From assembly GCA_964016885.1 (NCBI GenBank), contig OZ024757.1, positions 34,968,001 to 35,032,000 of the forward strand: a stretch of 64,000 bases of DNA, read 5' to 3'. This document shows, piece after piece, positions 1,346 through 37,803 of the stretch (its first letter is position 1; the number at the start of each line of letters is the position of its first letter). This DNA is from Eledone cirrhosa (taxonomy: Eukaryota). Made by a program: the position numbers and the translations under genes. The notes under the pieces were generated by a model that saw only the letters and a program-made list of their open reading frames with translations, searched no databases and was not told the DNA's origin.

Positions 1346-2147
1346 ATGTTACAACTCAATATATATATATTTGAGTTGTAACATATATTCCCGCCGTTGA
1401 AATAAAAATTTTAACAGAGAAACGGCGGGAATATATGTTACAATCCAATCTACATATATTTGGGTTGTAACATATATTCCCGCCGTTGAAATAAAAATTT
1501 TAATAGAAAAACGTCGGGAATATATGTTACAACGCAATCTATATATATTTGGGTTGTAACATATATTCCCGCCGTTGAAATAAAATTTTAATAGAAAAAC
1601 GGCGGGAATATATGTTACAACCCAACCTATATATGTTTGGGTTGTAATATATATTCCCGCCGTTTTTCTGTTAAAATTTTTATTTCAAAGGCGGGAATAT
1701 ATGTTACAACCCAAATATATGTAGATTGGGTTGTAACATATATTCCCGCCGTTTTTCTATTAAAATTTTTATTTCGACGGCGGGAATATATGTTACAACC
1801 CAAATATATGTAGATTGGATTGTAACATATATTCCCGCCGTTTTTCTATTAAAATGTTTATTTCAACGGCGGGAATATATGTTACAACCCAAATATATAT
1901 AGATTGGGCTGTAACATATATTCCCGCCGTTTTTCTATTAAAATTTTTATTTCAACGGCGGGAATATATGTTACAACCCAAATATATATAGATTGGGCTG
2001 TAACATATATTCCCGCCGTTTTTCTATTAAAATTTTTATTTCAACGGCGGGAATATATGTTACAACCCAAATATATAGAGATTGGGTTGTAACATATATT
2101 CCCGCCGTGTTTCTATTAAAACTTTTATTTCAACGGCGGGAATATAT
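1346..2147. repeat. 89-bp double-hairpin (palindromic) minisatellite, 9 units with internal inversion
   Basis: Unit gttgtaacatatattcccgccgtt-gaaataaaaattttaatagaaa-aacggcgggaatatatgttacaac-ccaatctatatatatttgg. Starts at 1375, 1464, 1553, 1641. Loops are reversed after about 1630. Confidence 0.97.
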
Positions 2148-2204
2148 ACCCTGAGAGACTGAGAAATCTCTTTCAAAGAGATTTCTCAGTCTCTCAGGGT
2201 ATAT
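2144..2204. repeat. Perfect 61-bp hairpin (30-bp arms, 1-nt loop); also 26862-26922, 29539-29599, 32216-32276, 34981-35041
   Basis: atataccctgagagactgagaaatctcttt-c-aaagagatttctcagtctctcagggtatat. Confidence 0.97.
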
Positions 2205-2420
2205 TTGCAATGGTGGCAACACAACCTTTCCTTTATTACAACAGTTACAATTTTCATTTCTAAATTTCAAAGCTCCACAGTGATCACACGAAACATTCAT
2301 ATCACTGATATGAAATCCTTCTACATTTCCATTAATATTAATTGTTGGCCAATTTCTCTTATGACACTCATTATCCATTCTTCTCTGTCTGAATGTTTTC
2401 CAGTCTAAGTCTATTTGCAT
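2175..2420 (-). pseudogene. Truncated Helitron N-terminal Cys-cluster fragment in unit A (also 26893-27138, 29570-29815, 32247-32492, 35012-35257)
   Basis: ORF MQIDLDWKTF..CDHCGALKF..YPERLRNLFER then diverges into the fold-back and satellite sequence. Confidence 0.88.
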
Positions 2421-4027
2421 GGAATAATTATATTCTGTTGTTTATTATGTAATTAAATAGCTCTGTACAATACATAGAGCATTCTTCTTTTCTTTACCTT
2501 TTCTATGGAAATACAAGAACAAACATATATATATATATATATATGTGTGTATATACATAAACAAGACTGTTATTGCTCCAACCAGTCTATTTACCTTTGA
2601 TAACTATCCTAAATATAAATACACCTATACCATACATACACATATCATATATGTTTTTGATGCCATGGTATAGCAGAGATAAGCAAGAAGAGAAAAGAAA
2701 ATGAAAATGAGAAAAAAAAAGAAGTAAGAAGTCGGGGGGAGGGACAGACACTTCACCCCAGTCTAAGTGGTCCCTCAGCCGCAACCTGTGGAAGAAACGT
2801 AAAAGCGTTACCTCGGAGCAAGGCCAGAGACACCTGCTACAATAGTCGCCCCTCCTCATGAGGCTCCTGTCGTCTTTCCTCCCGACTTTATGGAGGAAAT
2901 CAACAGTACAGGGACCAAGTATGGCAGAGGTCTCAATGGAGTGGAAGAGGTGAGTCAGGCCTTAGTACTATCTTACTATCCTCTGCATTGCGGGGTGTGG
3001 AGCCTAGGTTTGTGGCTGTAGCTATATTTGAACTTTTATATGAAATTTCAGTTTTATATTTTTCACATCTTAAAACTTAATCTTAGTCTTTTGCAGCTCA
3101 TCTTGTTTCATCTCGCAGCACACGATTTGGGAACCACTGCTCTAGAGATAGAAAAAGTATATTTTATGCAGGGATTCCCTGAGACATAAAAACTATTTCA
3201 AGAGATCGACATGGGTAGAAAGGTTGAGAAATGCTGCACAATGTTCTTTGGTTTTTGTTCACCTTTAAATAATCATGTATAAAATATCGGGTGTGCAAGA
3301 TTTCATGAAAAGGTATAACATTATTTATGCTGATCTTGCAGGGACTAGCTCCAATTGAGAGTTGTACCAATTCCCACTAAACTCGAAACTCCTGGACAAT
3401 ATATACATATCTTTATAAGTTCCTGTGTATTGTGTCGTTGTATAATGAAACATAAATATATACCAGGCATGTCAGTCAGATTTGAACTCACTATATTTGG
3501 CGTTTTATAGATATAATTTGTTTGTTAAAACAATTGATTAAATAATAACTAAATAAAATTAATTCTACAATCCTGGATAGGGAATGAACTTATAACTTCA
3601 TAATAGAAGCCATCTATTCGAGCAGTATTGCCATATAAGCCACCAGGTTACTTACAGAACTTCATTCAAATATAAAATATAAAATATATGCCAGACATAG
3701 TGAGTTGGAATCTGACTGATTAGTTGGTCATTGTCCCAGCCAACAGTTTAAATCGCCAACCAGTAGGTGACATCGACTAGGTTGGGAAAACTTGGTTAAG
3801 TAGCTCCAGTTATTGCTACGTTAGACATATTCAAGACTTATCGACACCGAATGGAAGAAAGGTAAAGTTGAACTCAGAGTAAAGAACTGGAAAAATACTG
3901 CAAAGAATTCTATCTGATGTTCTAACAATTCTACCAAATTACCTTATGTATATATATTTATATCTAGAGATAAGAAGAAAACTGAAAGAAAGAAAAAAAA
4001 AAAATGAGACCTTATATGTAACCCATG

Positions 4028-4088
4028 ACCAGGATTGAAACCGAAACCAGGACTACCACCATCTCTGGTATCACCCACCAGACCACCA
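4028..4088 (-). other. Degenerate tRNA-derived head (SINE-like) next to the unit-A breakpoint
   Basis: Minus strand tggtctggtgg (A-box-like) ... ggtttcaatcc (ggtttgaatcc in B3; B-box-like). Confidence 0.35.
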
Positions 4089-4569
4089 TGAAAGATACAA
4101 AAATCTGCCTTTTTAATATTTATAAGCCTACTTTCAATATTAAAGTAATTAACATGTGGTGTTGTTCATGCCTTTCTCTATGTTATTGGTAAAAAATAAA
4201 GTATTTAAACCTCAAATTTTGTTATTCAAATATGCTTGCTTATGTAATTATAAATGTCGCAGAATACACACACATATATAGATGTGAAAATATTCAGGAC
4301 CCCAACGGCTGTGCTACTGCCGTTTCGACATCTATATATATATCTTTTAGTCCTAGGCTCTTTCAGCGCAGAAAGAATTCTCCAATGATCACAACCAGCT
4401 AATGGTGCCCAGTGGAAGCACTTTAGTCTAATTATAACCCCAACGATCACGATTAGCGGCGGCTTTTTCGAGTCTGAGGTTGACTGCCAGATATATATAT
4501 ATATCTATATATATATATATATTTTTATACTTTGCTAGAATCCCGGAGAACAACAGAAAGATGCTGAGT

Positions 4570-6911
4570 TCAGAGTTTAAAAAACATGTCCCCTTTAATA
4601 TAAAAACAATCCGAGTCTTGTAAAAGTGTTATTACTGTAATATAAAGTAGAAACCCTTTATTTAAACAAAGCTGCGATGCAGCGATCATCAAAGCAAACC
4701 CCAAAATGTAAACACACTTCTCGCAGGTGCTGCCAGATACACGATAACATGTGTATACGAAGTGTAACAGGGAGTTGGGTCGTATTATATGACTTTCAAA
4801 TTGACCCCTATTATATTAAAATTATCCCCTGTGGGGCGTGCACCCCACGTTGAGAATCCCTCATAAATAAATATATGTGAGTGTGTTGCTATGACTGCTA
4901 TTTCTAGCAGGTTTACTGCAGTCCTGTAGACGCACAACAAAAACCGGAAGTGGCAGCCATTAAAAAACTTTGGCTTAAAATCAGCCAAAAGATTTTCAAT
5001 AATAGTAAAATTTTATTTTTGACAAGGACGATAACTTTTGTCTTACTTAATCGCAAAAATCGAGGCAAAAATTTTGAGGGTGTGCAGTTTACACGCTAAA
5101 AATAAACCTGCTAGAAATAGCAGTCATAGCAACTCACTTACATATATTTATATATCATATATATATATATATGATATATATATGGACACTTTAGAAATAG
5201 CAGCGAATAACAGAAAGGACACACACACACACACATATATATATATACACACACACACATATATATATATGCCCCAGCACACACACATATATATATATAT
5301 ATATACACACACACATATATATATATATGCCCCAGCATACACACACACACATATATATACATATATATATATATGCCCCAGCATGGTCTTGGACGATTGT
5401 CTAACTAAGGCCAATAATAAAATACTTCAAAATAAATTAAACACCCCTAAATCCGGGGTTACAACTTGGATTACTTAAAAGTCAGTAAAGCTGTAAAGAT
5501 TCTATATTGTAAATAGGTGGTCGCATGTTCGAATCCGGGCAAATCCCGAGAAAAATAACGAAAAGAAGGACAATGTAAAAATAGCAGCCATAGACGAGGG
5601 GAGGACACACACACAAACACACACACTCACACACACATATACACACACATGTGTATATATATATATGTGTGTCTGTGTATGTGTTTGGCTGCTATATATA
5701 TATATAGCGGTCAACACACACACACGTACATATATAAGTGTGTGTGTTTGGCTGATATATATATATATATATATATATGATATATAAATATATGTGAGTT
5801 GCTATGACTGCTATTTCTAGCAGGTTTATTTTAGCGTGTAAACTGCACACCCGCAAAATTTTTGCCTCGATTTTTGCGATTAAGTAAGACAAAAGTTATC
5901 GTCCTTGTCAAAAATAAAATTTTACTATTATTGAAAATCTTTTGGCTGATTTTAAGCCAAAGTTTTTTAATGGCTGCCACTTCCGGTTTTTGTTGTGCGT
6001 CTACAGGACAGCCAGAAACCTACTAGAAATAGCAGTCATAACAACACACTTATGTATATTTATATATCAGGGATTCTCAACGAAGGGTACACGCCCCACA
6101 GGGGCAATTTGAATTTAATAGGGGCCAATTAGAAAGTGATATAATACGACCAAACTTCCAGTTACACTTTGTTCACATGTTATCGTGTATCTGGCAGCAG
6201 CTACGAGAAGTTTGTTTATATTTTGAAGTTTGTTTTGATCATCGCGGCATCGTAGCTTTGTTTAATTAAAGCATTTCTACTTTATATTACAGTAGTAACA
6301 CTTTTACAAGACTCGGTTTATTTCTATATTAAAGGGGAACATAAACCTAATTTTTAAACGTTGAGGTGGGGCATGGAGCAAAAAAGGTTTGGAACTACTG
6401 AAGACAACGAATCATCGTTTTTATTAATGTAAACAAACTTCTCGCAGGTGCTGCCAGATACACGATAACATGTCTATACAAAGTGTAACAGGGAGTTGGG
6501 TCGTATTATATGACTTTCAAATTGACCCCTATTATATTAAAATTATCCCCTGTGGGGCGTGCACCCCACGTTGAGAATCCCTCATAAATAAATATATGTG
6601 AGTGTTGCTATGACTGCTATTTCTAGCAGGTTTACTGCAGTCCTGTAGACGCACAACAAAAACCGGAAGTGGCAGCCATTAAAAAACTTTGGCTTAAAAT
6701 CAGGCAAAAGTTTTTTTAACAATTTGCCAAGAAAGATAACTCTTGTCTTACTTAATCGCAAAAATCGAGGCAAAAATTTTGCGGGTGTGCAGTTTGTTTG
6801 GTGTATTTGACTGCTATTTCTAGCATATATGGACACTTTAGAAATAGCAGCGAAACACGGGAAACATAAGAAAGAAGGTCACACACGTATATATATATAT
6901 ATAATTATGTA

Positions 6912-6949
<38 letters not shown>

Positions 6950-7450
6950 TATATGCACAGATATATACATTTAAATATATATATTTATATATATATACAC
7001 GCGCGCACACACACCTATACGTAGATATGGGTGTGTGTATAGCTGGTATATATATGTATGGGTGAGTGTATAGCTGGTATATATATATATATATATAGGT
7101 GTGTGTCCTTCTTTCTGCTGTTTTCCGTTTTTCGCTGCTATTTCTAAAGTGTCCATACATGCTAGAAATAGCAGTCAAATACACCAAACAAACTGCACAC
7201 CCGCAAAATTTTTGCCTCGATTTTTGCGATTAAGTAAGACAAGAGTTATCTTTCTTGGCAAATTGTTAAAAAACTTTTGCCTGATTTTAAGCCAAAGTTT
7301 TTTAATGGCTGCCACTTCCGGTTTTTGTTGCGCGTCTACAGGACTGCAGTAAACCTGCTAGAAATAGCAGTCATAGAAACACACTCACATATATTTATTT
7401 ATGAGGGATTCTCAACGTGGGGTGCACGCCCCACAGGGGATAATTTGAAT
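4570..7450. repeat. Two adjacent fold-back (inverted repeat) structures with TA/CA microsatellite spacers (also about 37140-39980)
   Basis: Arms about 4740-5160 / 5770-6180 and about 6541-6890 / 7095-7447. The same ORF (DFKPKFFNGCHFRFLL) appears on alternating strands. Recurrent ctagaaatagcag motif. Confidence 0.88.
6068..6400 (+). mobile_element. hAT-like MITE (about 333 bp); also 38582-38915 and partial copies in both orientations at about 4570-4862, 6430-6582, 7403-7450, 14630-14903, 15525-15830, 17075-17252
   Basis: Imperfect terminal inverted repeats cagggattctcaac / gtttggaactactg resemble CAG(G/T)GGTTC(T/C)CAA hAT ends. No clear target-site duplication. Confidence 0.5.
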
Positions 7451-8048
7451 ATCCCCCTCTTTATATCAATTAGCACTAACTCTCTCCCTCTCTATATCTA
7501 CTACACGGCACTCTCTTCCAATACCCCTCTCTATATGAAGTAACACCAAACTCTCCCCCTCTCTATATATTAAGCACTAAGTCAGGAATTTTTTTCTTCT
7601 TTCGTGCAGAGAGAGTAAAGTTGATTAAATCTACTGCAGTGAATTACTGGTATTTTATTTAATAAAAATTAAAATTTACTATTTGTCTTCGTTTAATTTT
7701 CGTTTTTCTTTACATATTTTCGTTTCGTTAAATGTCTCCAGAATTTGTTTTTACTTTTACCGGATATTGAAGGTGTAAACTTGGTGTTGTCTAGAAACGT
7801 GTTAGAAATATTTTTCTTTTAATTGTGAAGAATTTAACCGCAAAGTAAGTTTTTTTTACTGTTTATTTGTGGCTGGGACAACGTATGGTATGTGTTAATG
7901 TAAATGGTGAAGGTTTAAAGATTCTTTTTACAACTGAAAATCAGTTTGTTGTTGCTGCTAATTACTTAACGCATGGAATAGATTTAAAAAATACACGATT
8001 GTTTCTCGGAAGAGAGGAAGAAGAAACAAATCACAGAAGCGGGTAGCA

Positions 8049-8525: not shown

Positions 8526-8540
8526 AGTGATAGATATTCT

Positions 8541-10150: not shown

Positions 10151-12464
10151 TTACATCTGTCTGTGAACTCTTGAAAAAGCAACATACAATTGTCCAGGTT
10201 TAAATACTTGCTCAGGGAGGAACAGACCCACTTTATCATGTATTTGACCATGGTTCTTGTTGATTGTCATGGCATATGACAGTCTTAATGGAAACTGGGG
10301 TCTTTCCAAAGTAAAAAGGATGTTGGCACCACTGGGGGCTAACTTCAGTCTTGGGATCAAAACACACCTGCCCATCAAAGGACCATAGATATGAGAAGCT
10401 TTGATAAAATGTTTATGCAGTTCTACTACTTCTAATCTTGTGCCATTACATAATCTGTTCTGGATTGAAATATTCCATAGAAGCATTATTATTGATCCTG
10501 CTTTTAATTGGAGTTTGTGAGGCGGCATCCCAGAAGGTGTAAGCAAGTTCATTTAGCTTGAACCAGGCAGCAAGGGTCCCTGCATTTCTACCACAACCTG
10601 AGCATTGCCTCTTTGAAAGTAAACTCTGTTTGTTCTCCAGGTGTGTGGCTAGGCTGTATACTGTATGTGATGTACCATGAAGCTTAAATTCCGAGAGACA
10701 CGACACTGCTTCTGGCTGAGACACATACCTGCAACAAAGATAGGTTCTTATTTCATCATGGTTGTGTTGGTTCTGAGCCTCATTAGGTAATGCATTATTC
10801 GTTACTTCTATAGATGTAAAATCATGCCCCATGTAACATATTTAAAGAGATACTTGACACTTTTTACAGAAGCGCAAACTTCAACATTAATATGTGCACA
10901 ATATTTCTTAAGCAAAAAGGCATTAAATGGCACAACATTCCTGTTATCTACTGAATGTCATCCAATTTACACTGCAGTTCCTGTCTTGCACCTCCTGTAC
11001 TCTGGGTATCCATTTAGGTTCAATAATGTTTCCCTTCTGTAGGTGTTTGGATAGTTCTTTTGGAAAAATCCATTTTGTATAAATGGGGGAAAAGGGTTTC
11101 CAGAACCACATGGCCCGTGGATCATAAACTTTTAAACCTGCTCATGTAGTACTTGATCATCTTCCAATGCAGGTATTTCTGCTGACACGATTCTGTCAAT
11201 GTCTTCTCTATTTCTTATCTTGTCTTCATTTCTTAAGGCTCAGTGTTATCATCTGTTTAGATAATTCATTAAACCATTATACTCATCCACTCACAATTGG
11301 GCTTGATTGTTCCTCAAATATTGAAGCCTGCATCCCTCTACTTTCATATAGGCTTCCACTAAATACTGCTAAAATAATTTACCTGCCCTATATATCGCAC
11401 TAAATCCTCCTCTATATGCTATACTTTATATGTAATACTCCTGCATTGTCAGTCTATTGCAAACACAGATCCTGCATTCCTCTCCATGTCACTATGCCAC
11501 CAAAATTCACCATTATGGGTCGGTCATGAGGTCCAAGTGGCATGAATTATGTGATATTTTCTGAGGAGGATGGTCTTTAGGAAAGATGATAATATCTCTT
11601 TGTACAGGTGGTCTGCCCTCAATCCCCCACAAAACAACAGCTATCATTACTAGTTGGTAAATTATAGCAGCTCATATCTGATCCTCTTCTAAATCTTAAT
11701 TCACAGTTCTGTACACGACAATTTTCTCTTCTTGCACTTTGCTGTTTGATGCCATGCATTGTATCGTACAATTCGACATATGGATTACATTCATGCAACA
11801 CCTCTCTTATCATAGCCATTTTTTGTGGTGAGCACTCATTATTTGTTGGTACTAGGGCGGTGGATTGGCAGTATCGGTAGAGCGTCAGACACCATGCTTT
11901 GCAGCATAGGGTTATGGCCCTTTACGTTCTGGGTTCAAATCCCTCCAAGGTTGACTTTGTTTTCATCCTTATGAGGTCGATAGAATAAAGTACCAGTAAT
12001 TGCTGGCCTTGTGCCAGAAACAATTATTTGGTTGTACTTCCAATCTGTGCTACACACCTTCGTTCCCATCAATAATATATAACTGGCCATATTGTGGTGT
12101 ATTTTCTGCAGGTTACAGAGGTGGGGGTGTAGTGATATGTTTGACCCTGAATATGAAAGCTATACGGGCCTCTGCCGGGTGGTAACACCAAATGAAGTGA
12201 AATAAATGTAGTTTTAATTGCAGACGTTTCTGTGAAATCAACTGCTTTCTGGCCTCTTTCAAAGAGATTTCTCAGTCTCTCGGGGTATATTTGCAATGGA
12301 GGCAACACAACCTTTCCTTTATTACAACAGTTACAATTTTCATTTTTAAATTTCAAAGCTCCACAGTGATCACACGAAACATTCATATCACTAATATGAA
12401 ATTCTTCTACATTTCCATTAATATTAATTGTTGGCCAATTTCTCTTACAACGCTCATTATCCAT
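10151..12464 (-). pseudogene. Degenerate, internally deleted Helitron Rep-helicase (RepHel), copy B1
   Basis: Minus-strand fragments occur in canonical RepHel order. N-terminal Cys cluster CDHCGALKF..CNCCNKGKVVLPPL. Helitron_like_N-type stretch AGKLF*QYLVEAYMKVEGCRLQYLRNNQAQL*VDEYNGLMNYL (about 11260-11450, hand-translated). DIDRIVSAEIP..MIHGPCG. VDNRNVVPFNAFLLKKYCAHINVEVCASVKSVKYLFKY (Rep tyrosine motif). DEIRTYLCCRYVSQPEA. PIF1 C-terminus GMPPHKLQLKAG..LCNGTRL..QFPLRLSYAMTINK..GQLYVAFSRV. Multiple stops and frameshifts. Confidence 0.92.
11854..12022 (+). mobile_element. tRNA-derived SINE (Octopus CORE-SINE-like) inserted in the Helitron, with target-site duplication
   Basis: A box tggcagtatcgg, B box ggttcaaatcc, body gttgactttgttttcatccttatgaggtcgatagaataaagtaccagt. 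Flanked by attatttgttggtact (11838-11853) and attatttggttgtact (12023-12038). Removing it rejoins the Helitron frame EVQPNN|ECSPQKMAMIREV. Confidence 0.85.
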
Positions 12465-15400
12465 TCTTCTCTGTCTGAATGTTTTCCATTCTGTTGTTTA
12501 TTATGTAATTAAATAGCTCTGTACAATACATAGAGCACTCTTCTTTTCTTTACCTTTTCTATGGAAATACAAGAACAAACATATAAATATATATATATAT
12601 GTATATACGTAAACAAGACTGTTATTGCTCCAACCAGTCTATTTACCTTTGATAACTATCCTAAATATAAATACACCTATACCATACATACATATATCAT
12701 ATATGTTTTTGATGCCGTGGTATAGCAGAGATAAGCAAGAAGAGAAAAGAAAATGAAAAGGAGAAAAAAAAAGAAGTAAGAAGTCGGGAGAGGGACAGAC
12801 ACTTCACCCCAGTCTAAGTGGTCCCTCAGCCGCAACCTGTGGAAGAAACGTAAAAGTGTTACCTCGGAGCAAGGCCAGAGACACCTGCTACAATAGTCGC
12901 CCCTCCTCGTGAGGCTCTTGTCATCTTTCCTCCCGACTTTATGGAGGAAATCAGCAGTACAGGGACCAAGTATGGCAGAGGTCTCAGTGGAGTGGAAGAG
13001 GTGAGTCAGGCCTTGGTAGTATCTTACTATCCTCTGCATTGCGGGGTGTGGAGCCTAGGTTTGTGGCTGTAGCTATATTTGAACTTTTATATGAAATTTC
13101 AGTTTTATATTTTTCACATCATAAAACTTAATCTTAGTCTTTTGCAGCTCATCTTGTTTCATCTCGCAGCACACGATTCGGGAACCACTGCTCTAGAGAT
13201 AGAAAAAGTATATTTTATGCAGGGCTTCCCTGAGACATAAAAACTATTTCAAGAGATCGACATGGGTAGAAAGGTTGAGAAATGCTGCACAATGTTCTTT
13301 GGTTTTTGTTCACCTTTAAATAATCATGTATAAAATATCGGGTGTGCAAGATTTCATGAAAAGGTATAACATTATTTATGCTGATCTTGCAGGGACTAGC
13401 TCCAATTGAGAGTTGTACCAATTCCCACTAAACTCGAAACTCCTGGACAATATATACATATCTTTATAAGTTCCTGTGTATTGTGTCGTTGTATAATGAA
13501 ACATAAATATATACCATGCATGTCAGTCAGATTTGAACTCACTATATTTGGCGTTTTATAGATATAATTTGTTTGTCAAAACAATTGATTAAATAATAAC
13601 TAAATAAAATTAATTCTACAATCCTGGATAGGGAATGAACTTATAACTTCATAATAGAAGCCATCTATTCGAGCAGTATTGCCATCTAAGCCACCAGGTT
13701 ACTTACAGAACTTCATTCAAATATAAAATATAAAATATATGCCGGACATAGTGAGTTGGAATCTGACTGATTAGTTGGTCATTGTCCCAGCCAACAGTTT
13801 AAATCGCCAACCAGTAGGTGACATCGACTAGGTTGGGAAAACTTGGTTAAGTAGCTCCAGTTATTGCTACGTTAGACATATTCAAGACTTATCGACACCG
13901 AATGGAAGAAAGGTAAAGTTGAACTCAGAGTAAAGAACTGGAAAAATACTGCAAAGAATTCTATCTGATGTTCTAACAATTCTACCAAATTACCTTATGT
14001 ATATATATTTATATCTAGAGATAAGAAGAAAACTGAAAGAAAGAAAAGAAAGAAAAATGAGACCTTATATGTAACCCATGACCAGGATTGAAACCGAAAC
14101 CATGACTACCACCATCTCTGGTATCACCCACCAGACCACCATGAAAGATACAAAAATCTGCATTTTTAATATTTATAAGCCTACTTTCAATATTAAAGTA
14201 ATTAACATGTGGTGTTGTTCATGCCTTTCTCTATGTTATTGGTAAAAAATAAAGTATTTAAACCTCAAATTTTGTTATTCAAATATGCTTGCTTATGTAA
14301 TTATAAATGTCGCAGAATACACACACATATATAGATGTGAAAATATTCAGGACCCCAACGGCTGTGCTACTGCCGTTTCGACATCTATATATATATATTT
14401 TAGTCCTAGGCTCTTTCAGCGCAGAAAGAATTCTCCAATGATCACAACCAGCCAATGGTGCCCAGTGGAAGCACTTTAGTCTAATTATAACCCCAACGAT
14501 CACGATTAGCGGCGGCTTTTTCGAGTCTGAGGTTGACTGCCAGATATATATATATATATATATTTTTATACTTTGCTAGAATCCCGGAGAACAACAGAAA
14601 GATGCTGAGTTCAGAGTTTAAAAAACATGTCCCCCTTTAATATAAAAACAATCCGAGTCTTGTAAAAGTGTTATTACTGTAATATAAAGTAGAAACCCTT
14701 TATTTAAACAAAGCTGAGATGCAGCGATCATCAAAGCAAACCCCAAAATGTAAACAAACTTCTCGCAGGTGCTGCCAGATACACGATAACATGTGTATAC
14801 GAAGTGTAACAGGGAGTTGGGTCGTATTATATGACTTTCAAATTGACCCCTATTATATTCAAATTATCCCCTGTGGGGCGTGCACCCCACGTTGAGAATC
14901 CCTCATAAATAAATATATGTGAGTGTGTTGCTATGACTGCTATTTCTAGCAGGTTTACTGCAGTCCTGGAGACGCACAACAAAAACCGGAAGTGGCAGCC
15001 ATTAAAAAACTTTGGCTTAAAATCAGGCAAAAGTTTTTTAACAATTTGCCAGAAAGATAACTCTTGTCTTACTTAATCGCAAAAATCGAGGCAAAAATTT
15101 TGCGGGTGTGCAGTTTGTTTGGTGTATTTGACTATACGTAGATATGGGTGTGTGTATAGCTGGTATATATATATATGTATGGGTGAGTGTATAGCTGGTA
15201 TATATATATATATATATAGGTGTGTGTCCTTCTTTCTGCTGTTTTCCGTTTTTCGCTGCTATTTCTAAAGTGTCCATACATGCTAGAAATAGCAGTCAAA
15301 TGCACCAAACAAACTGCACACCCGCAAAATTTTTGCCTCGATTTTTGCGATTAAGTAAGTCAAGAGTTATCTTTCTTGGCAAATTGTTAAAAAACTTTTG

Positions 15401-23970: not shown

Positions 23971-24558
23971 ATTATTTGGTTGTACTTCCAATCTGTGCTA
24001 CACACCTTCGTTCCCATCAATAATATATAACTGGCCATATTGTGGTGTATTTTCTGCAGGTTACAGAGATGGGGGTGTATTGATATGTTTGACCCTGAAT
24101 ATGAAATCTATACGGGCCTCTGCCGGGTGGTAACACCAAATGAAGTGAAATAAATGTAGTTTTAATTGCAGATGTTTCTGTGAAATCAACTGCTTCCTGG
24201 CCTCTTTCAAAGAGATTTCTCAGTCTCTCAGGGTATATTTGCAATGGTGGCAACACTACCTTTCCTTTATTACAACAGTTACAATTTTCATTTCTAAATT
24301 TCAAAGCTCCACAGTGATCACACGAAACATTCATATCACTAATATGAAATTCTTCTACATTTCCATTAATATTAATTGTTGGCCAATTTCTCTTACGACG
24401 CTCATTATCCATTCTTCTCTGTCTGAATGTTTTCCATTCTAAGTCTATTTGCATGGAATAATTATATTCTGTTGTTTATTATGTAATTAAATAGCTCTGT
24501 ACAATACATAGAGCATTCTTCTTTTCTTTACCTTTTCTATGGAAATACAAGAACAAAC

Positions 24559-24590
<32 letters not shown>

Positions 24591-26065
24591 ACATACATAA
24601 ACAAGACTGTTATTGTTCCAACCAGTCTATTTACCTTTGATAACTATCCTAAATATAAATACACCTATACCATACATACATATATCATATATGTTTTTGA
24701 TGCCGTGGTATAGCAGAGATAAGCAAGAAGAGAAAAGAAAATGAAAATGAGAAAAAAAAAAGAAGTAAGAAGTCGGGGGAGGGACAGACACTTCACCCCA
24801 GTCTAAGTGGTCCCTCAGCCGCAACCTGTGGAAGAAACGTAAAAGCGTTACCTCAGAGCAAGGCCAGAGACACCTGCTACAATAGTCGCCCCTCCTCATG
24901 AGGCTCCTGTCGTCTTTCCTCCCGACTTTATGGAGGAAATCAGCAGTACAGGGACCAAGTATGGCAGAGGTCTCAATGGAGTGGAAGAGGTGAGTCAGGC
25001 CTTGGTACTATCTTACTCTCCTCTGCATTGCGGGGTGTGGAGCCTAGGTTTGTGGCTGTAGCTATATTTGAACTTTTATATGAAATTTTAGTTTTATATT
25101 TTTCACATCATAAAACTTAATCTTAGTCTTTTGCAGCTCATCTTGTTTCATCTCGCAGCACACGATTCGGGAACCACTGCTCTAGAGATAGAAAAAGTAT
25201 ATTTTATGCAGGGCTTCCCTGAGACATAAAAACTATTTCAAGAGATCGACATGGGTAGAAAGGTTGAGAAATGCTGCACAATGTTCTTTGATTTTTGTTC
25301 ACCTTTAAATAATTATGTATAAAATATCGGGTGTGCAAGATTTCATGAAAAGGTATAACATTATTTATGCTGATCTTGCAGGGACTAGCTCCAATTGAGA
25401 GTTGTACCAATTCCCACTAAACTCGAAACTCCTGGACAATATATACATATCTTTATAAGTTCCTGTGTATTGTGTCGCTGTATAATGAAACATAAATATA
25501 TACCATGCATGTCAGTCAGATTTGAACTCACTATATTTGGCGTTTTATAGATATAATTTGTTTGTTAAAACAATTGATTAAATAATAACTAAATAAAATT
25601 AATTCTACAATCCTGGATAGGGAATGAACTTATAACTGCATAATAGAAGCCATCTTTTCGAGCAGTATTGCCATCTAAGCCACCAGGTTACTTACAGAAC
25701 TTCATTCAAATATAAAATATAAAATATATGCCAGACATAGTGAGTTGGAATCTGACTGATTAGTTGGTCATTGTCCCAGCCAACAGTTTAAATCGCCAAC
25801 CAGTAGGTGACATCGACTAGGTTGGGAAAACTTGGTTAAGTAGCTCCAGTTATTGCTACGTTAGACATATTCAAGACTTATCGACACTGAATGGAAGAAA
25901 GGTAAAGTTGAACTCAGAGTAAAGAACTGGAAAAATACTGCAAAGAATTCTATCTGATGTTCTAACAATTCTACCAAGTTACCTTATGTATATATATTTA
26001 TATCTAGAGATAAGAAGAAAACTGAAAGAAAGAAAAGAAAAAAAATGAGACCTTATATGTAACCC

Positions 26066-26865
26066 ATGTTACAACTCAATATATATATATTTGGGTTGTA
26101 ACATATTCCCGCCGGTGAAATAAAAATTTTAATAGAAAAACGGCGGGAATATATGTTACAACCCAATCTATATATATTTGAGTTGTAACATATATTCCCG
26201 CCGTTGAAATAAAAATTTTAATAGAAAAACGGCGGGAATATATGTTACAATCCAATCTACATATATTTGGGTTGTAACATATATTCCCGCCGTTGAAATA
26301 AAAATTTTAATAGAAAAACGTCGGGAATATATGTTACAACGCAATCTATATATATTTGGGTTGTAACATATATTCCCGCCGTTGAAATAAAATTTTAATA
26401 GAAAAACGGCGGGAATATATGTTACAACCCAACCTATATATGTTTGGGTTGTAACATATATTCCCGCCGTTTTTCTATTAAAATTTTTATTTCGACGGCG
26501 GGAATATATGTTACAACCCAAATATATATAGATAGGGTTGTAACATATATTCCCGCCGTTTTTCTATTAAAATTTTTATTTCAACGGCGGGAATATATGT
26601 TACAACCCAAATATATCTAGATTGGGTTGCAACATATATTCCCGCCGTTTTTCTATTAAAATGTTTATTTCAACGGCGGGAATATATGTTACAACCCAAA
26701 TATATATAGATTGGGCTGTAACATATATTCCCGCCGTTTTTCTATTAAAATTTTTATTTCAACTGCGGGAATATATGTTACAACCCAAATATATATAGAT
26801 TGGGTTGTAACATATATTCCCGCCGTTTTTCTATTAAAATTTTTATTTCAACGGCGGGAATATAT
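26066..26865. repeat. 89-bp palindromic minisatellite array (4 forward + 5 reverse loops)
   Basis: Same unit as 1346-2147. Confidence 0.96.
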
Positions 26866-28742
26866 ACCCTGAGAGACTGAGAAATCTCTTTCAAAGAGAT
26901 TTCTCAGTCTCTCAGGGTATATTTGCAATGGTGGCAACACAACCTTTCCTTTATTACAACAGTTACAATTTTCATTTCTAAATTTCAAAGCTCCACAGTG
27001 ATCACACGAAACATTCATATCACTGATATGAAATCCTTCTACATTTCCATTAATATTAATTGTTGGCCAATTTCCCTTACGACGCTCATTATCCATTCTT
27101 CTCTGTCTGAATGTTTTCCAGTCTAAGTCTATTTGCATGGAATAATTATATTCTGTTGTTTATTATGTAATTAAATAGCTCTGTACAATACATAGAGCAT
27201 TCTTCTTTTCTTTACCTTTTCTATGGAAATACAAGAACAAACATATATATATATATATATATGTGTGTATATACATAAACAAGACTGTTATTGCTCCAAC
27301 CAGTCTATTTACCTTTGATAACTATCCTAAATATAAATACACCTATACCATACATACACATATCATATATGTTTTTGATGCCGTGGTATAGCAGAGATAA
27401 GCAAGAAGAGAAAAGAAAATGAAAATGAGAAAAAAAAAGAAGTAAGAAGTCGGGGGAGGGACAGACACTTCACCCCAGTCTAAGTGGTCCCTCAGCCGCA
27501 ACCTGTGGAAGAAACGTAAAAGCGTTACCTCAGAGCAAGGCCAGAGACACCTGCTACAATAGTCGCCCCTCCTCATGAGGCTCCTGTCGTCTTTCCTCCC
27601 GACTTTATGGAGGAAATCAACAGTACAGGGACCAAGTATGGCAGAGGTCTCAATGGAGTGGAAGAGGTGAGTCAGGCCTTGGTACTATCTTACTATCCTC
27701 TGCATTGCGGGGTGTGGAGCCTAGGTTTGTGGCTGTAGCTATATTTGAACTTTTATATGAAATTTCAGTTTTATATTTTTCACATCTTAAAACTTAATCT
27801 TAGTCTTTTGCAGCTCATCTTGTTTCATCTCGCAGCACACGATTTGGGAACCACTGCTCTAGAGATAGAAAAAGTATACTTTATGCAGGGATTCCCTGAG
27901 ACATAAAAACTATTTCAAGAGATCGACATGGGTAGAAAGGTTGAGAAATGCTGCACAATGTTCTTTGATTTTTGTTCACCTTTAAATAATTATGTATAAA
28001 ATATCGGGTGTGCAAGATTTCATGAAAAGGTATAACATTATTTATGCTGATCTTGCAGGGACTAGCTCCAATTGAGAGTTGTACCAATTCCCACTAAACT
28101 CGAAACTCCTGGACAATATATACATATCTTTATAAGTTCCTGTGTATTGTGTCGCTGTATAATGAAACATAAATATATACCATGCATGTCAGTCAGATTT
28201 GAACTCACTATATTTGGCGTTTTATAGATATAATTTGTTTGTTAAAACAATTGATTAAATAATAACTAAATAAAATTAATTCTACAATCCTGGATAGGGA
28301 ATGAACTTATAACTGCATAATAGAAGCCATCTATTCGAGCAGTATTGCCATCTAAGCCACCAGGTTACTTACAGAACTTCATTCAAATATAAAATATAAA
28401 ATATATGCCAGACATAGTGAGTTGGAATCTGACTGATTAGTTGGTCATTGTCCCAGCCAACAGTTTAAATCGCCAACCAGTAGGTGACATCGACTAGGTT
28501 GGGAAAACTTGGTTAAGTAGCTCCAGTTATTGCTACGTTAGACATATTCAAGACTTATCGACACTGAATGGAAGAAAGGTAAAGTTGAACTCAGAGTAAA
28601 GAACTGGAAAAATACTGCAAAGAATTCTATCTGATGTTCTAACAATTCTACCAAGTTACCTTATGTATATATATTTATATCTAGAGATAAGAAGAAAACT
28701 GAAAGAAAGAAAAGAAAAAAAATGAGACCTTATATGTAACCC

Positions 28743-29542
28743 ATGTTACAACTCAATATATATATATTTGGGTTGTAACATATTCCCGCCGGTGAAATAA
28801 AAATTTTAATAGAAAAACGGCGGGAATATATGTTACAACCCAATCTATATATATTTGAGTTGTAACATATATTCCCGCCGTTGAAATAAAAATTTTAATA
28901 GAAAAACGGCGGGAATATATGTTACAATCCAATCTACATATATTTGGGTTGTAACATATATTCCCGCCGTTGAAATAAAAATTTTAATAGAAAAACGTCG
29001 GGAATATATGTTACAACGCAATCTATATATATTTGGGTTGTAACATATATTCCCGCCGTTGAAATAAAATTTTAATAGAAAAACGGCGGGAATATATGTT
29101 ACAACCCAACCTATATATGTTTGGGTTGTAACATATATTCCCGCCGTTTTTCTATTAAAATTTTTATTTCGACGGCGGGAATATATGTTACAACCCAAAT
29201 ATATATAGATAGGGTTGTAACATATATTCCCGCCGTTTTTCTATTAAAATTTTTATTTCAACGGCGGGAATATATGTTACAACCCAAATATATCTAGATT
29301 GGGTTGCAACATATATTCCCGCCGTTTTTCTATTAAAATGTTTATTTCAACGGCGGGAATATATGTTACAACCCAAATATATATAGATTGGGCTGTAACA
29401 TATATTCCCGCCGTTTTTCTATTAAAATTTTTATTTCAACTGCGGGAATATATGTTACAACCCAAATATATATAGATTGGGTTGTAACATATATTCCCGC
29501 CGTTTTTCTATTAAAATTTTTATTTCAACGGCGGGAATATAT
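28743..29542. repeat. 89-bp palindromic minisatellite array
   Basis: Same unit as 1346-2147. Confidence 0.96.
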
Positions 29543-31419
29543 ACCCTGAGAGACTGAGAAATCTCTTTCAAAGAGATTTCTCAGTCTCTCAGGGTATATT
29601 TGCAATGGTGGCAACACAACCTTTCCTTTATTACAACAGTTACAATTTTCATTTCTAAATTTCAAAGCTCCACAGTGATCACACGAAACATTCATATCAC
29701 TGATATGAAATCCTTCTACATTTCCATTAATATTAATTGTTGGCCAATTTCCCTTACGACGCTCATTATCCATTCTTCTCTGTCTGAATGTTTTCCAGTC
29801 TAAGTCTATTTGCATGGAATAATTATATTCTGTTGTTTATTATGTAATTAAATAGCTCTGTACAATACATAGAGCATTCTTCTTTTCTTTACCTTTTCTA
29901 TGGAAATACAAGAACAAACATATATATATATATATATATGTGTGTATATACATAAACAAGACTGTTATTGCTCCAACCAGTCTATTTACCTTTGATAACT
30001 ATCCTAAATATAAATACACCTATACCATACATACACATATCATATATGTTTTTGATGCCGTGGTATAGCAGAGATAAGCAAGAAGAGAAAAGAAAATGAA
30101 AATGAGAAAAAAAAAGAAGTAAGAAGTCGGGGGAGGGACAGACACTTCACCCCAGTCTAAGTGGTCCCTCAGCCGCAACCTGTGGAAGAAACGTAAGAGT
30201 GTTACCTCGGAGCAAGGCCAGAGACACCTGCTACAATAGTCGCCCCTCCTCATGAGGCTCCTGTCGTCTTTCCTCCCGACTTTATGGAGGAAATCAACAG
30301 TACAGGGACCAAGTATGGCAGAGGTCTCAATGGAGTGGAAGAGGTGAGTCAGGCCTTGGTACTATCTTACTATCCTCTGCATTGCGGGGTGTGGAGCCTA
30401 GGTTTGTGGCTGTAGCTATATTTGAACTTTTATATGAAATTTCAGTTTTATATTTTTCACATCTTAAAACTTAATCTTAGTCTTTTGCAGCTCATCTTGT
30501 TTCATCTCGCAGCACACGATTTGGGAACCACTGCTCTAGAGATAGAAAAAGTATACTTTATGCAGGGATTCCCTGAGACATAAAAACTATTTCAAGAGAT
30601 CGACATGGGTAGAAAGGTTGAGAAATGCTGCACAATGTTCTTTGATTTTTGTTCACCTTTAAATAATTATGTATAAAATATCGGGTGTGCAAGATTTCAT
30701 GAAAAGGTATAACATTATTTATGCTGATCTTGCAGGGACTAGCTCCAATTGAGAGTTGTACCAATTCCCACTAAACTCGAAACTCCTGGACAATATATAC
30801 ATATCTTTATAAGTTCCTGTGTATTGTGTCGCTGTATAATGAAACATAAATATATACCATGCATGTCAGTCAGATTTGAACTCACTATATTTGGCGTTTT
30901 ATAGATATAATTTGTTTGTTAAAACAATTGATTAAATAATAACTAAATAAAATTAATTCTACAATCCTGGATAGGGAATGAACTTATAACTGCATAATAG
31001 AAGCCATCTATTCGAGCAGTATTGCCATCTAAGCCACCAGGTTACTTACAGAACTTCATTCAAATATAAAATATAAAATATATGCCAGACATAGTGAGTT
31101 GGAATCTGACTGATTAGTTGGTCATTGTCCCAGCCAACAGTTTAAATCGCCAACCAGTAGGTGACATCGACTAGGTTGGGAAAACTTGGTTAAGTAGCTC
31201 CAGTTATTGCTACGTTAGACATATTCAAGACTTATCGACACTGAATGGAAGAAAGGTAAAGTTGAACTCAGAGTAAAGAACTGGAAAAATACTGCAAAGA
31301 ATTCTATCTGATGTTCTAACAATTCTACCAAGTTACCTTATGTATATATATTTATATCTAGAGATAAGAAGAAAACTGAAAGAAAGAAAAGAAAAAAAAT
31401 GAGACCTTATATGTAACCC

Positions 31420-32219
31420 ATGTTACAACTCAATATATATATATTTGGGTTGTAACATATTCCCGCCGGTGAAATAAAAATTTTAATAGAAAAACGGCGG
31501 GAATATATGTTACAACCCAATCTATATATATTTGAGTTGTAACATATATTCCCGCCGTTGAAATAAAAATTTTAATAGAAAAACGGCGGGAATATATGTT
31601 ACAATCCAATCTACATATATTTGGGTTGTAACATATATTCCCGCCGTTGAAATAAAAATTTTAATAGAAAAACGTCGGGAATATATGTTACAACGCAATC
31701 TATATATATTTGGGTTGTAACATATATTCCCGCCGTTGAAATAAAATTTTAATAGAAAAACGGCGGGAATATATGTTACAACCCAACCTATATATGTTTG
31801 GGTTGTAACATATATTCCCGCCGTTTTTCTATTAAAATTTTTATTTCGACGGCGGGAATATATGTTACAACCCAAATATATATAGATAGGGTTGTAACAT
31901 ATATTCCCGCCGTTTTTCTATTAAAATTTTTATTTCAACGGCGGGAATATATGTTACAACCCAAATATATCTAGATTGGGTTGCAACATATATTCCCGCC
32001 GTTTTTCTATTAAAATGTTTATTTCAACGGCGGGAATATATGTTACAACCCAAATATATATAGATTGGGCTGTAACATATATTCCCGCCGTTTTTCTATT
32101 AAAATTTTTATTTCAACGGCGGGAATATATGTTACAACCCAAATATATATAGATTGGGTTGTAACATATATTCCCGCCGTTTTTCTATTAAAATTTTTAT
32201 TTCAACGGCGGGAATATAT
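31420..32219. repeat. 89-bp palindromic minisatellite array
   Basis: Same unit as 1346-2147. Confidence 0.96.
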
Positions 32220-34095
32220 ACCCTGAGAGACTGAGAAATCTCTTTCAAAGAGATTTCTCAGTCTCTCAGGGTATATTTGCAATGGTGGCAACACAACCTT
32301 TCCTTTATTACAACAGTTACAATTTTCATTTCTAAATTTCAAAGCTCCACAGTGATCACACGAAACATTCATATCACTGATATGAAATCCTTCTACATTT
32401 CCATTAATATTAATTGTTGGCCAATTTCTCTTACGACGCTCATTATCCATTCTTCTCTGTCTGAATGTTTTCCAGTCTAAGTCTATTTGCATGGAATAAT
32501 TATATTCTGTTGTTTATTATGTAATTAAATAGCTCTGTACAATACATAGAGCATTCTTCTTTTCTTTACCTTTTCTATGGAAATACAAGAACAAACATAT
32601 ATATATATATATATATGTGTGTATATACATAAACAAGACTGTTATTGCTCCAACCAGTCTATTTACCTTTGATAACTATCCTAAATATAAATACACCTAT
32701 ACCATACATACACATATCATATATGTTTTTGATGCCGTGGTATAGCAGAGATAAGCAAGAAGAGAAAAGAAAATGAAAATGAGAAAAAAAAAGAAGTAAG
32801 AAGTCGGGGGAGGGACAGACACTTCACCCCAGTCTAAGTGGTCCCTCAGCCGCAACCTGTGGAAGAAACGTAAGAGTGTTACCTCGGAGCAAGGCCAGAG
32901 ACACCTGCTACAATAGTCGCCCCTCCTCATGAGGCTCCTGTCGTCTTTCCTCCCGACTTTATGGAGGAAATCAACAGTACAGGGACCAAGTATGGCAGAG
33001 GTCTCAATGGAGTGGAAGAGGTGAGTCAGGCCTTGGTACTATCTTACTATCCTCTGCATTGCGGGGTGTGGAGCCTAGGTTTGTGGCTGTAGCTATATTT
33101 GAACTTTTATATGAAATTTCAGTTTTATATTTTTCACATCTTAAAACTTAATCTTAGTCTTTTGCAGCTCATCTTGTTTCATCTCGCAGCACACGATTTG
33201 GGAACCACTGCTCTAGAGATAGAAAAAGTATACTTTATGCAGGGATTCCCTGAGACATAAAAACTATTTCAAGAGATCGACATGGGTAGAAAGGTTGAGA
33301 AATGCTGCACAATGTTCTTTGGTTTTTGTTCACCTTTAAATAATCATGTATAAAATATCGGGTGTGCAAGATTTCATGAAAAGGTATAACATTATTTATG
33401 CTGATCTTGCAGGGACTAGCTCCAATTGAGAGTTGTACCAATTCCCACTAAACTCGAAACTCCTGGACAATATATACATATCTTTATAAGTTCCTGTGTA
33501 TTGTGTCGTTGTATAATGAAACATAAATATATACCATGCATGTCAGTCAGATTTGAACTCACTATATTTGGCGTTTTATAGATATAATTTGTTTGTTAAA
33601 ACAATTGATTAAATAATAACTAAATAAAATTAATTCTACAATCCTGGATAGGGAATGAACTTATAACTTCATAATAGAAGCCATCTATTCGAGCAGTATT
33701 GCCATCTAAGCCACCAGGTTACTTACAGAACTTCATTCAAATATAAAATATAAAATATATGCCAGACATAGTGAGTTGGAATCTGACTGATTAGTTGGTC
33801 ATTGTCCCAGCCAACAGTTTAAATCGCCAACCAGTAGGTGACATCGACTAGGTTGGGAAAACTTGGTTAAGTAGCTCCAGTTATTGCTACGTTAGACATA
33901 TTCAAGACTTATCGACACTGAATGGAAGAAAGGTAAAGTTGAACTCAGAGTAAAAACTGGAAAAATACTGCAAAGAATTCTATCTGATGTTCTAACAATT
34001 CTACCAAGTTACCTTATGTATATATATTTATATCTAGAGATAAGAAGAAAACTGAAAGAAAGAAAAGAAAAAAAATGAGACCTTATATGTAACCC

Positions 34096-34984
34096 GTGTT
34101 ACAACTCAATATATATATATTTGGGTTGTAACATATTCCCGCCGGTGAAATAAAAATTTTAATAGAAAAACGGCGGGAATATATGTTACAACCCAATCTA
34201 TATATATTTGAGTTGTAACATATATTCCCGCCGTTGAAATAAAAATTTTAATAGAAAAACAGCGGGAATATATGTTACAATCCAATCTACATATATTTGG
34301 GTTGTAACATATATTCCCGCCGTTGAAATAAAAATTTTAATAGAAAAACGTCGGGAATATATGTTACAACGCAACCTATATATGTTTGGGTTGTAACATA
34401 TATTCCCGCCGTTGAAATAAAATTTTAATAGAAAAACGGCGGGAATATATGTTACAACCCAACCTATATATGTTTGGGTTGTAATATATATTCCCGCCGT
34501 TTTTCTGTTAAAATTTTTATTTCAACGGCGGGAATATATGTTACAACCCAAATATATGTAGATTGGGTTGTAACATATATTCCCGCCGTTTTTCTATTAA
34601 AATTTTTATTTCGACGGCGGGAATATATGTTACAACCCAAATATATGTAGATAGGGTTGTAACATATATTCCCGCCGTTTTTCTATTAAAATTTTTATTT
34701 CAACGGCGGGAATATATGTTACAACCCAAATATATGTAGATTGGATTGCAACATATATTCCCGCCGTTTTTCTATTAAAATGTTTATTTCAACGGTGAGA
34801 ATATATGTTACAACCCAAATATATATAGATTGGGCTGTAACATATATTCCCGCCGTTTTTCTATTAAAATTTTTATTTCAACGGCGGGAATATATGTTAC
34901 AACCCAAATATATATAGATTGGGTTGTAACATATATTCCCGCCGTTTTTCTATTAAAATTTTTATTTCAACGGCGGGAATATAT
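34096..34984. repeat. 89-bp palindromic minisatellite array (4 forward + 6 reverse loops)
   Basis: Same unit with one extra copy, which accounts for the longer 2763-bp A unit. Confidence 0.96.
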
Positions 34985-37803
34985 ACCCTGAGAGACTGAG
35001 AAATCTCTTTCAAAGAGATTTCTCAGTCTCTCAGGGTATATTTGCAATGGTGGCAACACTACCTTTCCTTTATTACAACAGTTACAATTTTCATTTCTAA
35101 ATTTCAAAGCTCCACAGTGATCACACGAAACATTCATATCACTAATATGAAATTCTTCTACATTTCCATTAATATTAATTGTTGGCCAATTTCTCTTACG
35201 ACGCTCATTATCCATTCTTCTCTGTCTGAATGTTTTCCATTCTAAGTCTATTTGCATGGAATAATTATATTCTGTTGTTTATTATGTAATTAAATAGCTC
35301 TGTACAATACATAGAGCATTCTTCTTTTCTTTACCTTTTCTATGGAAATACAAGAACAAACATATATATATATATATATGTGTGTATATACATAAACAAG
35401 ACTGTTATTGCTCCAACCAGTCTATTTACCTTTGATAACTATCCTAAATATAAATACACCTATACCATACATACACATATCATATATGTTTTTGATGCCG
35501 TGGTATAGCAGAGATAAGCAAGAAGAGAAAAGAAAATGAAAATGAGAAAAAAAAAGAAGTAAGAAGTCGGGGGGAGGGACAGACACTTCACCCCAGTCTA
35601 AGTGGTCCCTCAGCCGCAACCTGTGGAAGAAACGTAAAAGCGTTACCTCGGAGCAAGGCCAGAGACACCTGCTACAATAGTCGCCCCTCCTCATGAGGCT
35701 CCTGTCGTCTTTCCTCCCGACTTTATGGAGGAAATCAACAGTACAGGGACCAAGTATGGCAGAGGTCTCAATGGAGTGGAAGAGGCGAGTCAGGCCTTGG
35801 TACTATCTTACTATCTTTGGTTTTTGTTCACTTTTAAATAATCATGTATAAAATATCGGGTGTGCAAGATTTCATGAAAAGGTATAACATTATTTATGCT
35901 GATCTTGCAGGGACTAGCTCCAATTGAGAGTTGTACCAATTCCCACTAAACTCGAAACTCCTGGACAATATATACATATCTTTATAAGTTCCTGTGTATT
36001 GTGTCGTTGTATAATGAAACATAAATATATATCATGCATGTCAGTCAGATTTGAACTCACTATATTTGGCGTTTTATAGATATAATTTGTTTGTTAAAAC
36101 AATTGATTAAATAATAACTAAATAAAATTAATTCTACAATCCTGGATAGGGAATGAACTTATAACTTCATAATAGAAGCCATCTATTCGAGCAGTATTGC
36201 CATCTAAGCCACCAGGTTACTTACAGAACTTCATTCAAATATAAAATATAAAATATATGCCAGACATAGTGAGTTCGAATCTGACTGATTAGTTGGTCAT
36301 TGTCCCAGCCAACAGTTTAAATCGCCAACCAGTAGGTGACATCGACTAGGTTGGGAAAACTTGGTTAAGTAGCTCCAGTTATTGCTACGTTAGACATATT
36401 CAAGACTTATCGACACCGAATGGAAGAAAGGTAAAGTTGAACTCAGAGTAAAGAACTGGAAAAATACTGCAAAGAATTCTATCTGATGTTCTAACAATTC
36501 TACCAAATTACCTTATGTATATATATTTATATCTAGAGATAAGAAGAAAACTGAAAGAAAGAAAAAAAAAAAATGAGACCTTATATGTAACCCATGACCA
36601 GGATTCAAACCGAAACCAGGACTACCACCATCTCTGGTATCACCCACCAGACCACCATGAAAGATACAAAAATCTGCATTTTTAATATTTATAAGCCTAC
36701 TTTCAATATTAAAGTAATTAACATGTGGTGTTGTTCATGCCTTTCTCTATGTTATTGGTAAAAAATAAAGTATTTAAACCTCAAATTTTGTTATTCAAAT
36801 ATGCTTGCTTATGTAATTATAAATGTCGCAGAGTACACACACATATATAGATGTGAAAATATTCAGGACCCCAACGGCTGTGCTACTGCCGTTTCGACAT
36901 CTATATATATATATTTTAGTCCTAGGCTCTTTCAGCGCAGAAAGAATTCTCCACTGATCACAACCAGCTAATGGTGCCCAGTGGAAGCACTTTAGTCTAA
37001 TTATAACCCCAACGATCACGATTAGCGGCGGCTTTTTCGAGTCTGAGGTTGACTGCCAGATATATATATATATCTATATATATATATATATTTTTATACT
37101 TTGCTAGAATCCCGGAGAACAACAGAAAGATGCTGAGTTCAGAGTTTAAAAAACATGTCCCCTTTAATATAAAAACAATCCGAGTCTTGTAAAAGTGTTA
37201 TTACTGTAATATAAAGTAGAAACCCTTTATTTAAACAAAGCTGCGATGCAGCGATCATCAAAGCAAACCCCAAAATGTAAACACACTTCTCGCAGGTGCT
37301 GCCAGATACACGATAACATGTGTATACGAAGTGTAACAGGGAGTTGGGTCGTATTATATGACTTTCAAATTGACCCCTATTATATTCAAATTATCCCCTG
37401 TGGGGCGTGCACCCCACGTTGAGAATCCCTCATAAATAAATATATGTGAGTGTGTTGCTATGACTGCTATTTCTAGCAGGTTTACTGCAGTCCTGTAGAC
37501 GCACAACAAAAACCGGAAGTGGCAGCCATTAAAAAACTTTGGCTTAAAATCAGCCAAAAGATTTTCAATAATAGTAAAATTTTATTTTTGACAAGGACGA
37601 TAACTTTTGTCTTACTTAATCGCAAAAATCGAGGCAAAAATTTTGAGGGTGTGCAGTTTACACGCTAAAAATAAACCTGCTAGAAATAGCAGTCATAGCA
37701 ACTCACTTACATATATTTATATATCATATATATATGGACACTTTAGAAATAGCAGCGAATAACAGAAAGGACACACACACACACACATATATATATGCCC
37801 CAG

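Follow-up and report, generated by a model that had tools for sequence, protein, structure and literature searches.

A palindromic minisatellite whose single inversion point is fixed, at a duplication junction and probably made once by template switch and fold-back

Closest described systems

In bacteria, the BIME-2/REP arrays consist of short palindromic units that alternate in orientation and are repeated in tandem. The arrays studied here lie in eukaryotic repeat DNA instead, and their unit had no match in prokaryote or viral collections. Exact matches to the stem of the unit numbered 0 in viral contigs, GTDB genomes and metagenomes, blastn against phages and plasmids gave only matches of E 0.3-0.9 (2 and 5 records), and Rfam gave 0 matches at gathering score in the window, by which we mean the whole 64-kb stretch of DNA that was analysed. 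A gapped hairpin pattern was met at 3 metagenome loci, each of them a lone hairpin with unrelated flanks, and these matches were set down to chance. With 0 exact stem matches and weak blastn matches only, a viral or prokaryotic origin was rejected.

Among eukaryotic satellites, the arrays of TfSat01 in Tribolium freemani consist mostly of two inverse subarrays, whose arms are unequal and whose inversion points are conserved, while inverted subunits build up the monomers of related Tribolium satellites, according to sections of PMC12581902. The present locus resembles these macro-dyad arrays in its inverse subarrays, in a conserved switch without foreign sequence and in arms that are unequal here too. 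However, the monomer here is only 89 bp long and is itself a double hairpin, and the array measures 0.8 kb and stands at one duplication junction. The dogbone and inverted dimeric circle of ODIRA, as outlined in part of PMC10766183, are similar in their alternating inverted segments and retained spacers, and in a single inversion with arms that are balanced in 4/5 arrays here, whereas the segment here is 24 bp and not kilobases long, the spacers measure 11-22 nt against a preferred 40-80, and the flanks are direct duplicates with no inverted triplication. Coral CMITEs, in the portion of PMC2872659 that treats them, are ~100-bp units with inverted ends arranged head to tail, an arrangement ascribed to slippage. 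Unlike them, the array ends here have neither a TTAA duplication nor a piggyBac-type terminal motif, no solo copies were seen in the window, and the inverted arms make up most of the 89-bp unit. Tandem repeats derived from MITEs and Helitrons are reviewed more widely in parts of PMC12628747.

The stem motif was not found in open-access text, which also held no related report of a palindromic octopus satellite DNA like these arrays, and a 12-nt stem match was absent from the supplement of one Octopus repeat paper. The double-hairpin monomer, the two-arm array and the likely repair junction each have precedents, and their combination is a variant.

Array anatomy and the inversion point

Tandem Repeats Finder located arrays of the 89-bp unit at 1346, 26066, 28743, 31420 and 34097, with 9, 9, 9, 9 and 10 copies, which are all five places where a preliminary description of this DNA had claimed them. 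The unit is a dyad composed of a stem, a 19-nt loop, the inverted stem and a 22-nt loop. The features of the arrays, in window coordinates, are as follows.

1346..2147, no strand: array of nine 89-bp dyad units, long loops 3 forward + 6 reverse
26066..26865, no strand: array copy, 4+5 by unit parsing
28743..29542, no strand: array copy, 4+5, 800/800 identical to 26066
31420..32219, no strand: array copy, 4+5, 799/800 identical
34096..34984 (start 34096/7), no strand: array copy, 4+6, with one 89-nt unit beyond 26066, just past the central loop
1375..1398, + strand: example of the 24-bp stem, whose orientation alternates every 43/46 nt
1622..1664, no strand: fixed switch, made up of the marked central short loop 1622-1640 and the next stem, the same unit in 5/5 arrays

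A Hamming scan found 83 copies of the 24-bp stem at <=3 mismatches, all within the five arrays and in strict +/- alternation, a count that omits the first S stem of four arrays, where 2 bp are deleted. Outside the arrays the same kind of scan found 0 copies in the 64-kb window at <=6 mismatches. The alternation bears out the earlier statement that every stem is inverted relative to both neighbours. Unit parsing agreed further with that description: orientation is carried by the two AT-rich loops only, and it switches once per array, with forward and reverse counts by the longer loop of 3+6, 4+5 (three arrays) and 4+6.

The preliminary description had also suggested that an array can fold in two alternative hairpin registers. 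The predicted folding was far stronger than chance, with energies of -391 and -396 kcal/mol and z of -54 and -73 (20 shuffles each), but the predicted minimum was a single long fold-back rather than local hairpin registers. Two short-loop hairpins, at 1622-1640 and 1355-1376, contain paired complementary changes, in a bulged register for the central loop and in the stem for unit 1 of array 1346, a pattern that templated hairpin correction would be expected to give.

It had further been proposed that the array is an active element whose inversion point is moved by stem-stem recombination or template switching. Every loop does lie between inverted stems of 24 bp, and a spacer so placed can be turned round by an inter-strand switch, according to part of 10.1101/038380. 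Moreover, one marker is common to both arms at positions that do not mirror each other (216 vs 39), and some exchange between the arms did occur, without shifting the switch. The position of the switch speaks against such movement. In 5/5 arrays the loop orientation changes in the stem that follows one and the same marked loop and one and the same 88-nt unit, and eight forward-side variants stand at identical distances from the centre of the central loop (257, 187, 178, 117, 97, 49, 5 and -4 nt). Since a flip would have carried forward markers across, and none has moved to the reverse side in any of the five arrays, the switch is not moving; singly inverted loops numbered 0/92 over the same five arrays. 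In these copies a movable inversion point is refuted, and we regard the active-element reading as very improbable. It should be added that, with identities of 800/800 and 799/800 among the 4+5 arrays, only three independent haplotypes stand behind the five arrays, a number that leaves room for rare movement of the switch. The earlier ideas of an origin by template switching and of a hairpin or cruciform potential fit the evidence, while ongoing flipping does not.

The differences in count have another form. Aligned to array 34096, with which it shares 782/802 positions, array 1346 has a single gap of 87 nt at offset 16 and so is without the first, 87-nt forward unit, and array 26066 shows one 89-nt gap directly past the central loop (790/800 identical). 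The count differences are whole-unit gains and losses, such as may come from slippage or unequal exchange.

The duplication junction and its Helitron setting

Self-BLAST of the window revealed a ~10-kb macro-repeat that contains a 2677-bp tandem unit. The features of this unit and its junctions are listed below.

24202..35004, no strand: ~2677-bp units in tandem, each made up of duplicated segment, array and snap-back, beginning with an unjoined copy at 24202
2168..4024, no strand: 1857-bp tandemly duplicated segment, the array filling the junction of successive copies
1346..1348, + strand: left junction, 3-bp microhomology common to the array start and the continuation in the empty allele
2144..2204, no strand: 61-nt perfect palindrome, composed of 4-bp microhomology, the 20-nt snap-back copy (2148-2167) and the first part of the duplicated segment
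4025..4060, + strand: empty allele, the array-less continuation of the left flank, found likewise from 14078 and 36594

All five arrays share identical left and right junctions. Empty left sites (n=3) are accompanied by unjoined right sites on the + strand (n=3) and by one inverted unjoined copy: at 12254, 24202 and 44500 a different sequence stands before the right segment, and the inverted copy lies near 63910. Given the shared flanks and these empty and unjoined sites, each array fills the junction of a ~1857-bp direct duplication. One copy of the duplicated segment, 35005-36593, is about 270 bp shorter through an internal deletion near 35814. The duplicated flanks differ by 0.16-1.81%, and the array units differ from their consensus by 2.3-3.3%; because the units are more diverged than the flanks, the array is likely older than the junction or faster mutating. 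In the first case it would have aged at another place until it was captured, and this difference counts against the reading we prefer below.

Between the array and the right segment, a 20-nt insertion is the reverse complement of the adjoining segment, and its seed is a native 13-nt hairpin at the start of the duplicated segment, with 6-bp arms and a 1-nt loop. Snap-back synthesis-dependent end joining gives such an inverted-repeat insertion from templates within 50 bp, in the part of PMC9303309 that deals with it. The likeness to this snap-back SD-MMEJ, or polymerase-theta-type insertion, extends to an inverted primer repeat at the break, an adjacent template, an inverted-repeat scar and microhomology, and the inverted primer repeat, the adjacent 20-nt templated insertion and a 4-bp microhomology are all present here. 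The locus differs in its extra 800-nt insertion, which has no template in the window, and the role of polymerase theta is putative. This insertion is also far longer than the templated insertions in the sections of PMC9303309 concerned, which counts against a capture of the array in repair. Tandem duplications from 1 kb up, some of them carrying insertions, are described in part of PMC7368036, and the duplication here is likewise in the kilobase range.

Fold-back chimeras are a familiar artefact of long reads, and three of the arrays are nearly identical, as an assembly or library fold-back artefact might leave them. Reads and contigs of other samples speak against this. Seven runs were listed, four of them with part of the array and with no RNA run among the holders, and X1, X4, X5 and X6 were compared over 30700-31575, a span of left flank, left junction and 156 bases of one array. 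X5 and X6 are raw reduced-representation reads from two other samples, with ends at AATT sites and likely duplicates. The left junction and the tandem joint are present in the contigs of X1 and X4 and in the raw reads of X5 and X6, where about 55-75 reads cross the junction. At its first base, array 34096 carries a G variant that was also seen in 10/59 X5 reads, and the haplotypes differ by consistent markers. With the junction and the markers in reads of two other samples, the structure is no assembly error, and we give the artefact reading practically no credence.

In X1, depth was 1488-1938 in the flank and about 600-740 at the junction, although depth is not copy number. X4, which is labelled as another organism, has a nearly identical flank and junction at depth 7-10, and its unit depth of 7.6 is about equal to, and not ninefold, its junction depth of 6.7, which counts against the reading we prefer below. 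The central-loop markers were found in 31/233 and 48/355 reads of two samples, roughly 1 in 7-8 units, against 6/41 window units. At eight sites among the variants listed, the shares of these markers in X5/X6 were 0.133/0.135 and 0.133/0.140 against 0.146 in the window (41 units), and two other variants fitted as well (0.091/0.161 vs 0.122; 0.202/0.189 vs 0.171). The shares departed from those of the window at 4/8 sites (0.380/0.301 vs 0.244; 0.126/0.130 vs 0.049; 0.792/0.840 vs 0.902; 0.098/0.045 vs 0.098), which counts against the reading we prefer below. Read depth in X5 was flat across the short loop, from 234 to 223. The undiluted array-specific markers and the flat depth suggest that most sampled units come from copies of this array, a comparison that would not show a single donor locus elsewhere.

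Two further observations concern this span. The change 31464 C>T in the first unit is common in X4, X5 and X6 and absent from the arrays of the window, so further haplotypes exist. In the left flank, 31232-31331 is a high-copy SINE-like piece with many diverged reads and loose ends. The SINE-like pieces of the window suggest an octopus as the putative host.

The right side of the junction lies in Helitron remnants, as listed here; the preliminary description had missed this setting, with its tandem duplication, decayed Helitron and snap-back hairpin.

2172..2360, - strand: N-terminal coding fragment of Helitron RepHel, cut by the junction hairpin
10157..12467, - strand: decayed Helitron RepHel in the ~10-kb macro-repeat, with zinc-finger region, Rep part, PIF1 helicase end and frameshifts
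19388-24424 (interrupted) and 42404-44722: further RepHel copies

Over 82% of a 142-aa frame, the right segment shares 54% identity with a protein of 1530 aa in which PF14214 and PF05970 occur, and tblastn mapped this homologue in broken pieces over 10157-12467 and its repeats; residues ~868-1366 of the RepHel homologue were unmatched in 10157..12467. Pfam matches were obtained in 1/7 Helitron fragments (PF21530, E 5e-14), and homologue searches gave none of near length and 1 of longer length. The right array junction stands inside RepHel coding sequence and not at a Helitron terminus. No Helitron-type 3' end (hairpin and CTRRT) was found at the array, the one match in a scan of 2101-14100 being at 4050, off the array ends. 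Accordingly, an origin of the unit from a Helitron terminus was dropped as unsupported.

The setting nevertheless recalls transposons. The unit could be an 89-bp mini-MITE with ~28-bp inverted ends, repeated in tandem, or a foldback repeat arm, and the array could have come from a dispersed family. Full-length MITEs of ~100 bp form tandem arrays in corals (part of PMC2872659), the array looks older than the junction, and it sits in a Helitron remnant, palindromic minisatellites being known from the 5' parts of Helitrons (part of PMC13404089). The array ends are not mutual inverted repeats, however: the left end starts mid-stem with a second half, and the right end stops after a first half, of a stem in the same sense. 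No short target duplication is present, and the flanks are the two ends of the 1857-bp duplication plus the snap-back insertion. Solo copies number 0 in 64 kb, the right junction is within coding sequence, and the flat X5 depth and undiluted markers may point away from a dispersed family. We thus find the transposon-derived unit quite unlikely. The suggestion of a foldback-type mobile unit in the preliminary description failed on the same ends and missing target duplication, and on there being one junction only.

Proposed history of the arrays

We consider it probable that this palindromic minisatellite, with its one fixed inversion point, was made once by template switch and fold-back, captured in microhomology-mediated break repair and then amplified as a passenger of the macro-repeat. 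The stem-loop-stem-loop seed would have arisen by a short switch of template from one imperfect AT-rich hairpin to another. The four-point template switch of type 3-1-4-2, in the portion of 10.1101/038380 that presents it, has the geometry of this seed, for which there is no ancestral sequence to fit, and that model covers single events and not arrays. Slippage or rolling copying would have expanded the seed head to tail to at least 4.5 units, and one fold-back would then have copied the block in reverse. The seed, expansion and fold-back steps are unobserved, and within the 64-kb window neither stem nor loops have a local donor, the best BLAST matches outside the arrays being 10-15 nt long and AT-rich.

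The fold-back is suggested by mirrored markers. Reverse complements of the linked forward markers 178/187 stand in the reverse arm of 2/5 arrays, at 179/188 in array 1346 and at 268/277 in array 34096. The chance of independent mirrored recurrence is 0.001-0.003 per register and 0.006-0.02 over six registers, which makes a common descent of the two arms, through fold-back or conversion, likely. Counting against this, none of the three 4+5 arrays has the whole mirrored pair, with another base at site 179 and no change at 188. The arms of the 4+5 arrays measure 372 and 427 nt, and the reverse arm reaches ~55 nt farther than the mirrored left end; this overrun indicates that the fold-back likely took place on a template longer than the present array. 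The block sits in the duplication junction with microhomologies of 3 and 4 bp at its joins and a 20-nt snap-back insertion, and was presumably joined there during the repair of a break. Later whole-unit gains and losses followed, together with amplification as the 2677-bp unit, which implies no function.

A different origin may be considered for the two-arm form, namely that the array was a once-opened extrachromosomal molecule. An 89-nt dumbbell would have been copied by rolling circle into a ~400-bp hairpin-ended duplex, the equivalent of a 9-unit inverted-dimer circle, which was nicked once near the cap and captured at a break. One unit closed to a circle is predicted to fold as a dumbbell (-27.8 kcal/mol), and a 4+5 array is predicted to fold as a nicked dumbbell. 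In yeast, hairpin-capped 'dogbones' yield inverted dimeric circles once they are replicated, according to part of PMC10766183. Both array ends fall at the same stem position, which gives whole-number units, and the arms are balanced in 4/5 arrays, as the inverted-dimer geometry with retained spacers would have it. By position, the chance of ends in phase is ~0.09, or 2/7 given the ATAT microhomology, and that of balanced arms is ~0.18, but the joint chance of ~0.02-0.05 does no more than suggest this origin. No replication origin or nicking enzyme is known here, the arms of the 3+6 array are out of balance, for most markers the other arm has no mirror partner, and a precedent for a dumbbell or rolling-circle minisatellite was not found in open-access text. 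On balance, we judge this origin unlikely. If true, it would be direct evidence for an origin-free rolling-hairpin birth of satellites in animals: the array would be a fossil of hairpin-capped extrachromosomal DNA in the animal germ line, needing no transposon or origin, and a snapshot of a satellite arising de novo outside the chromosome.

Under the history of template switch, fold-back and capture, which we prefer, the locus would be an unusually clean record of palindromic satellite seeding, fold-back, trapping at a repair junction and amplification, with empty alleles nearby. It would serve as a useful case study and not as a new system. It also shows that many copies of a 0.8-kb, 97%-perfect palindrome can be maintained with no flipping of the loops.

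The window contains other inverted and tandem repeats. From 44929 to 63571 there are 46-bp satellite blocks and AG-rich repeats whose strand changes once, at 56108-56226 (~56164), where 45-bp perfect arms enclose a 29-nt spacer, and a Helitron segment is inverted at 63571-64000. This field and the inverted Helitron segment are a second, larger fold-back in the window, and we counted its inversion at ~56164 in the 46-bp satellite in support of the preferred history. A 46-bp/CT satellite block at 20998-22767 interrupts a Helitron copy and has the orientation of the satellite blocks beyond 56165. Around microsatellites, a ~600-bp inverted pair of 91% identity (4586-5181/5755-6342 and 37155-37735/38271-38857) resembles a MITE with long terminal inverted repeats. 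Finally, a 55-bp tandem array has 16.9, 3.9 and 10.9 copies in successive copies of the macro-repeat (8669-9586, 18593-18809 and 41238-41825).
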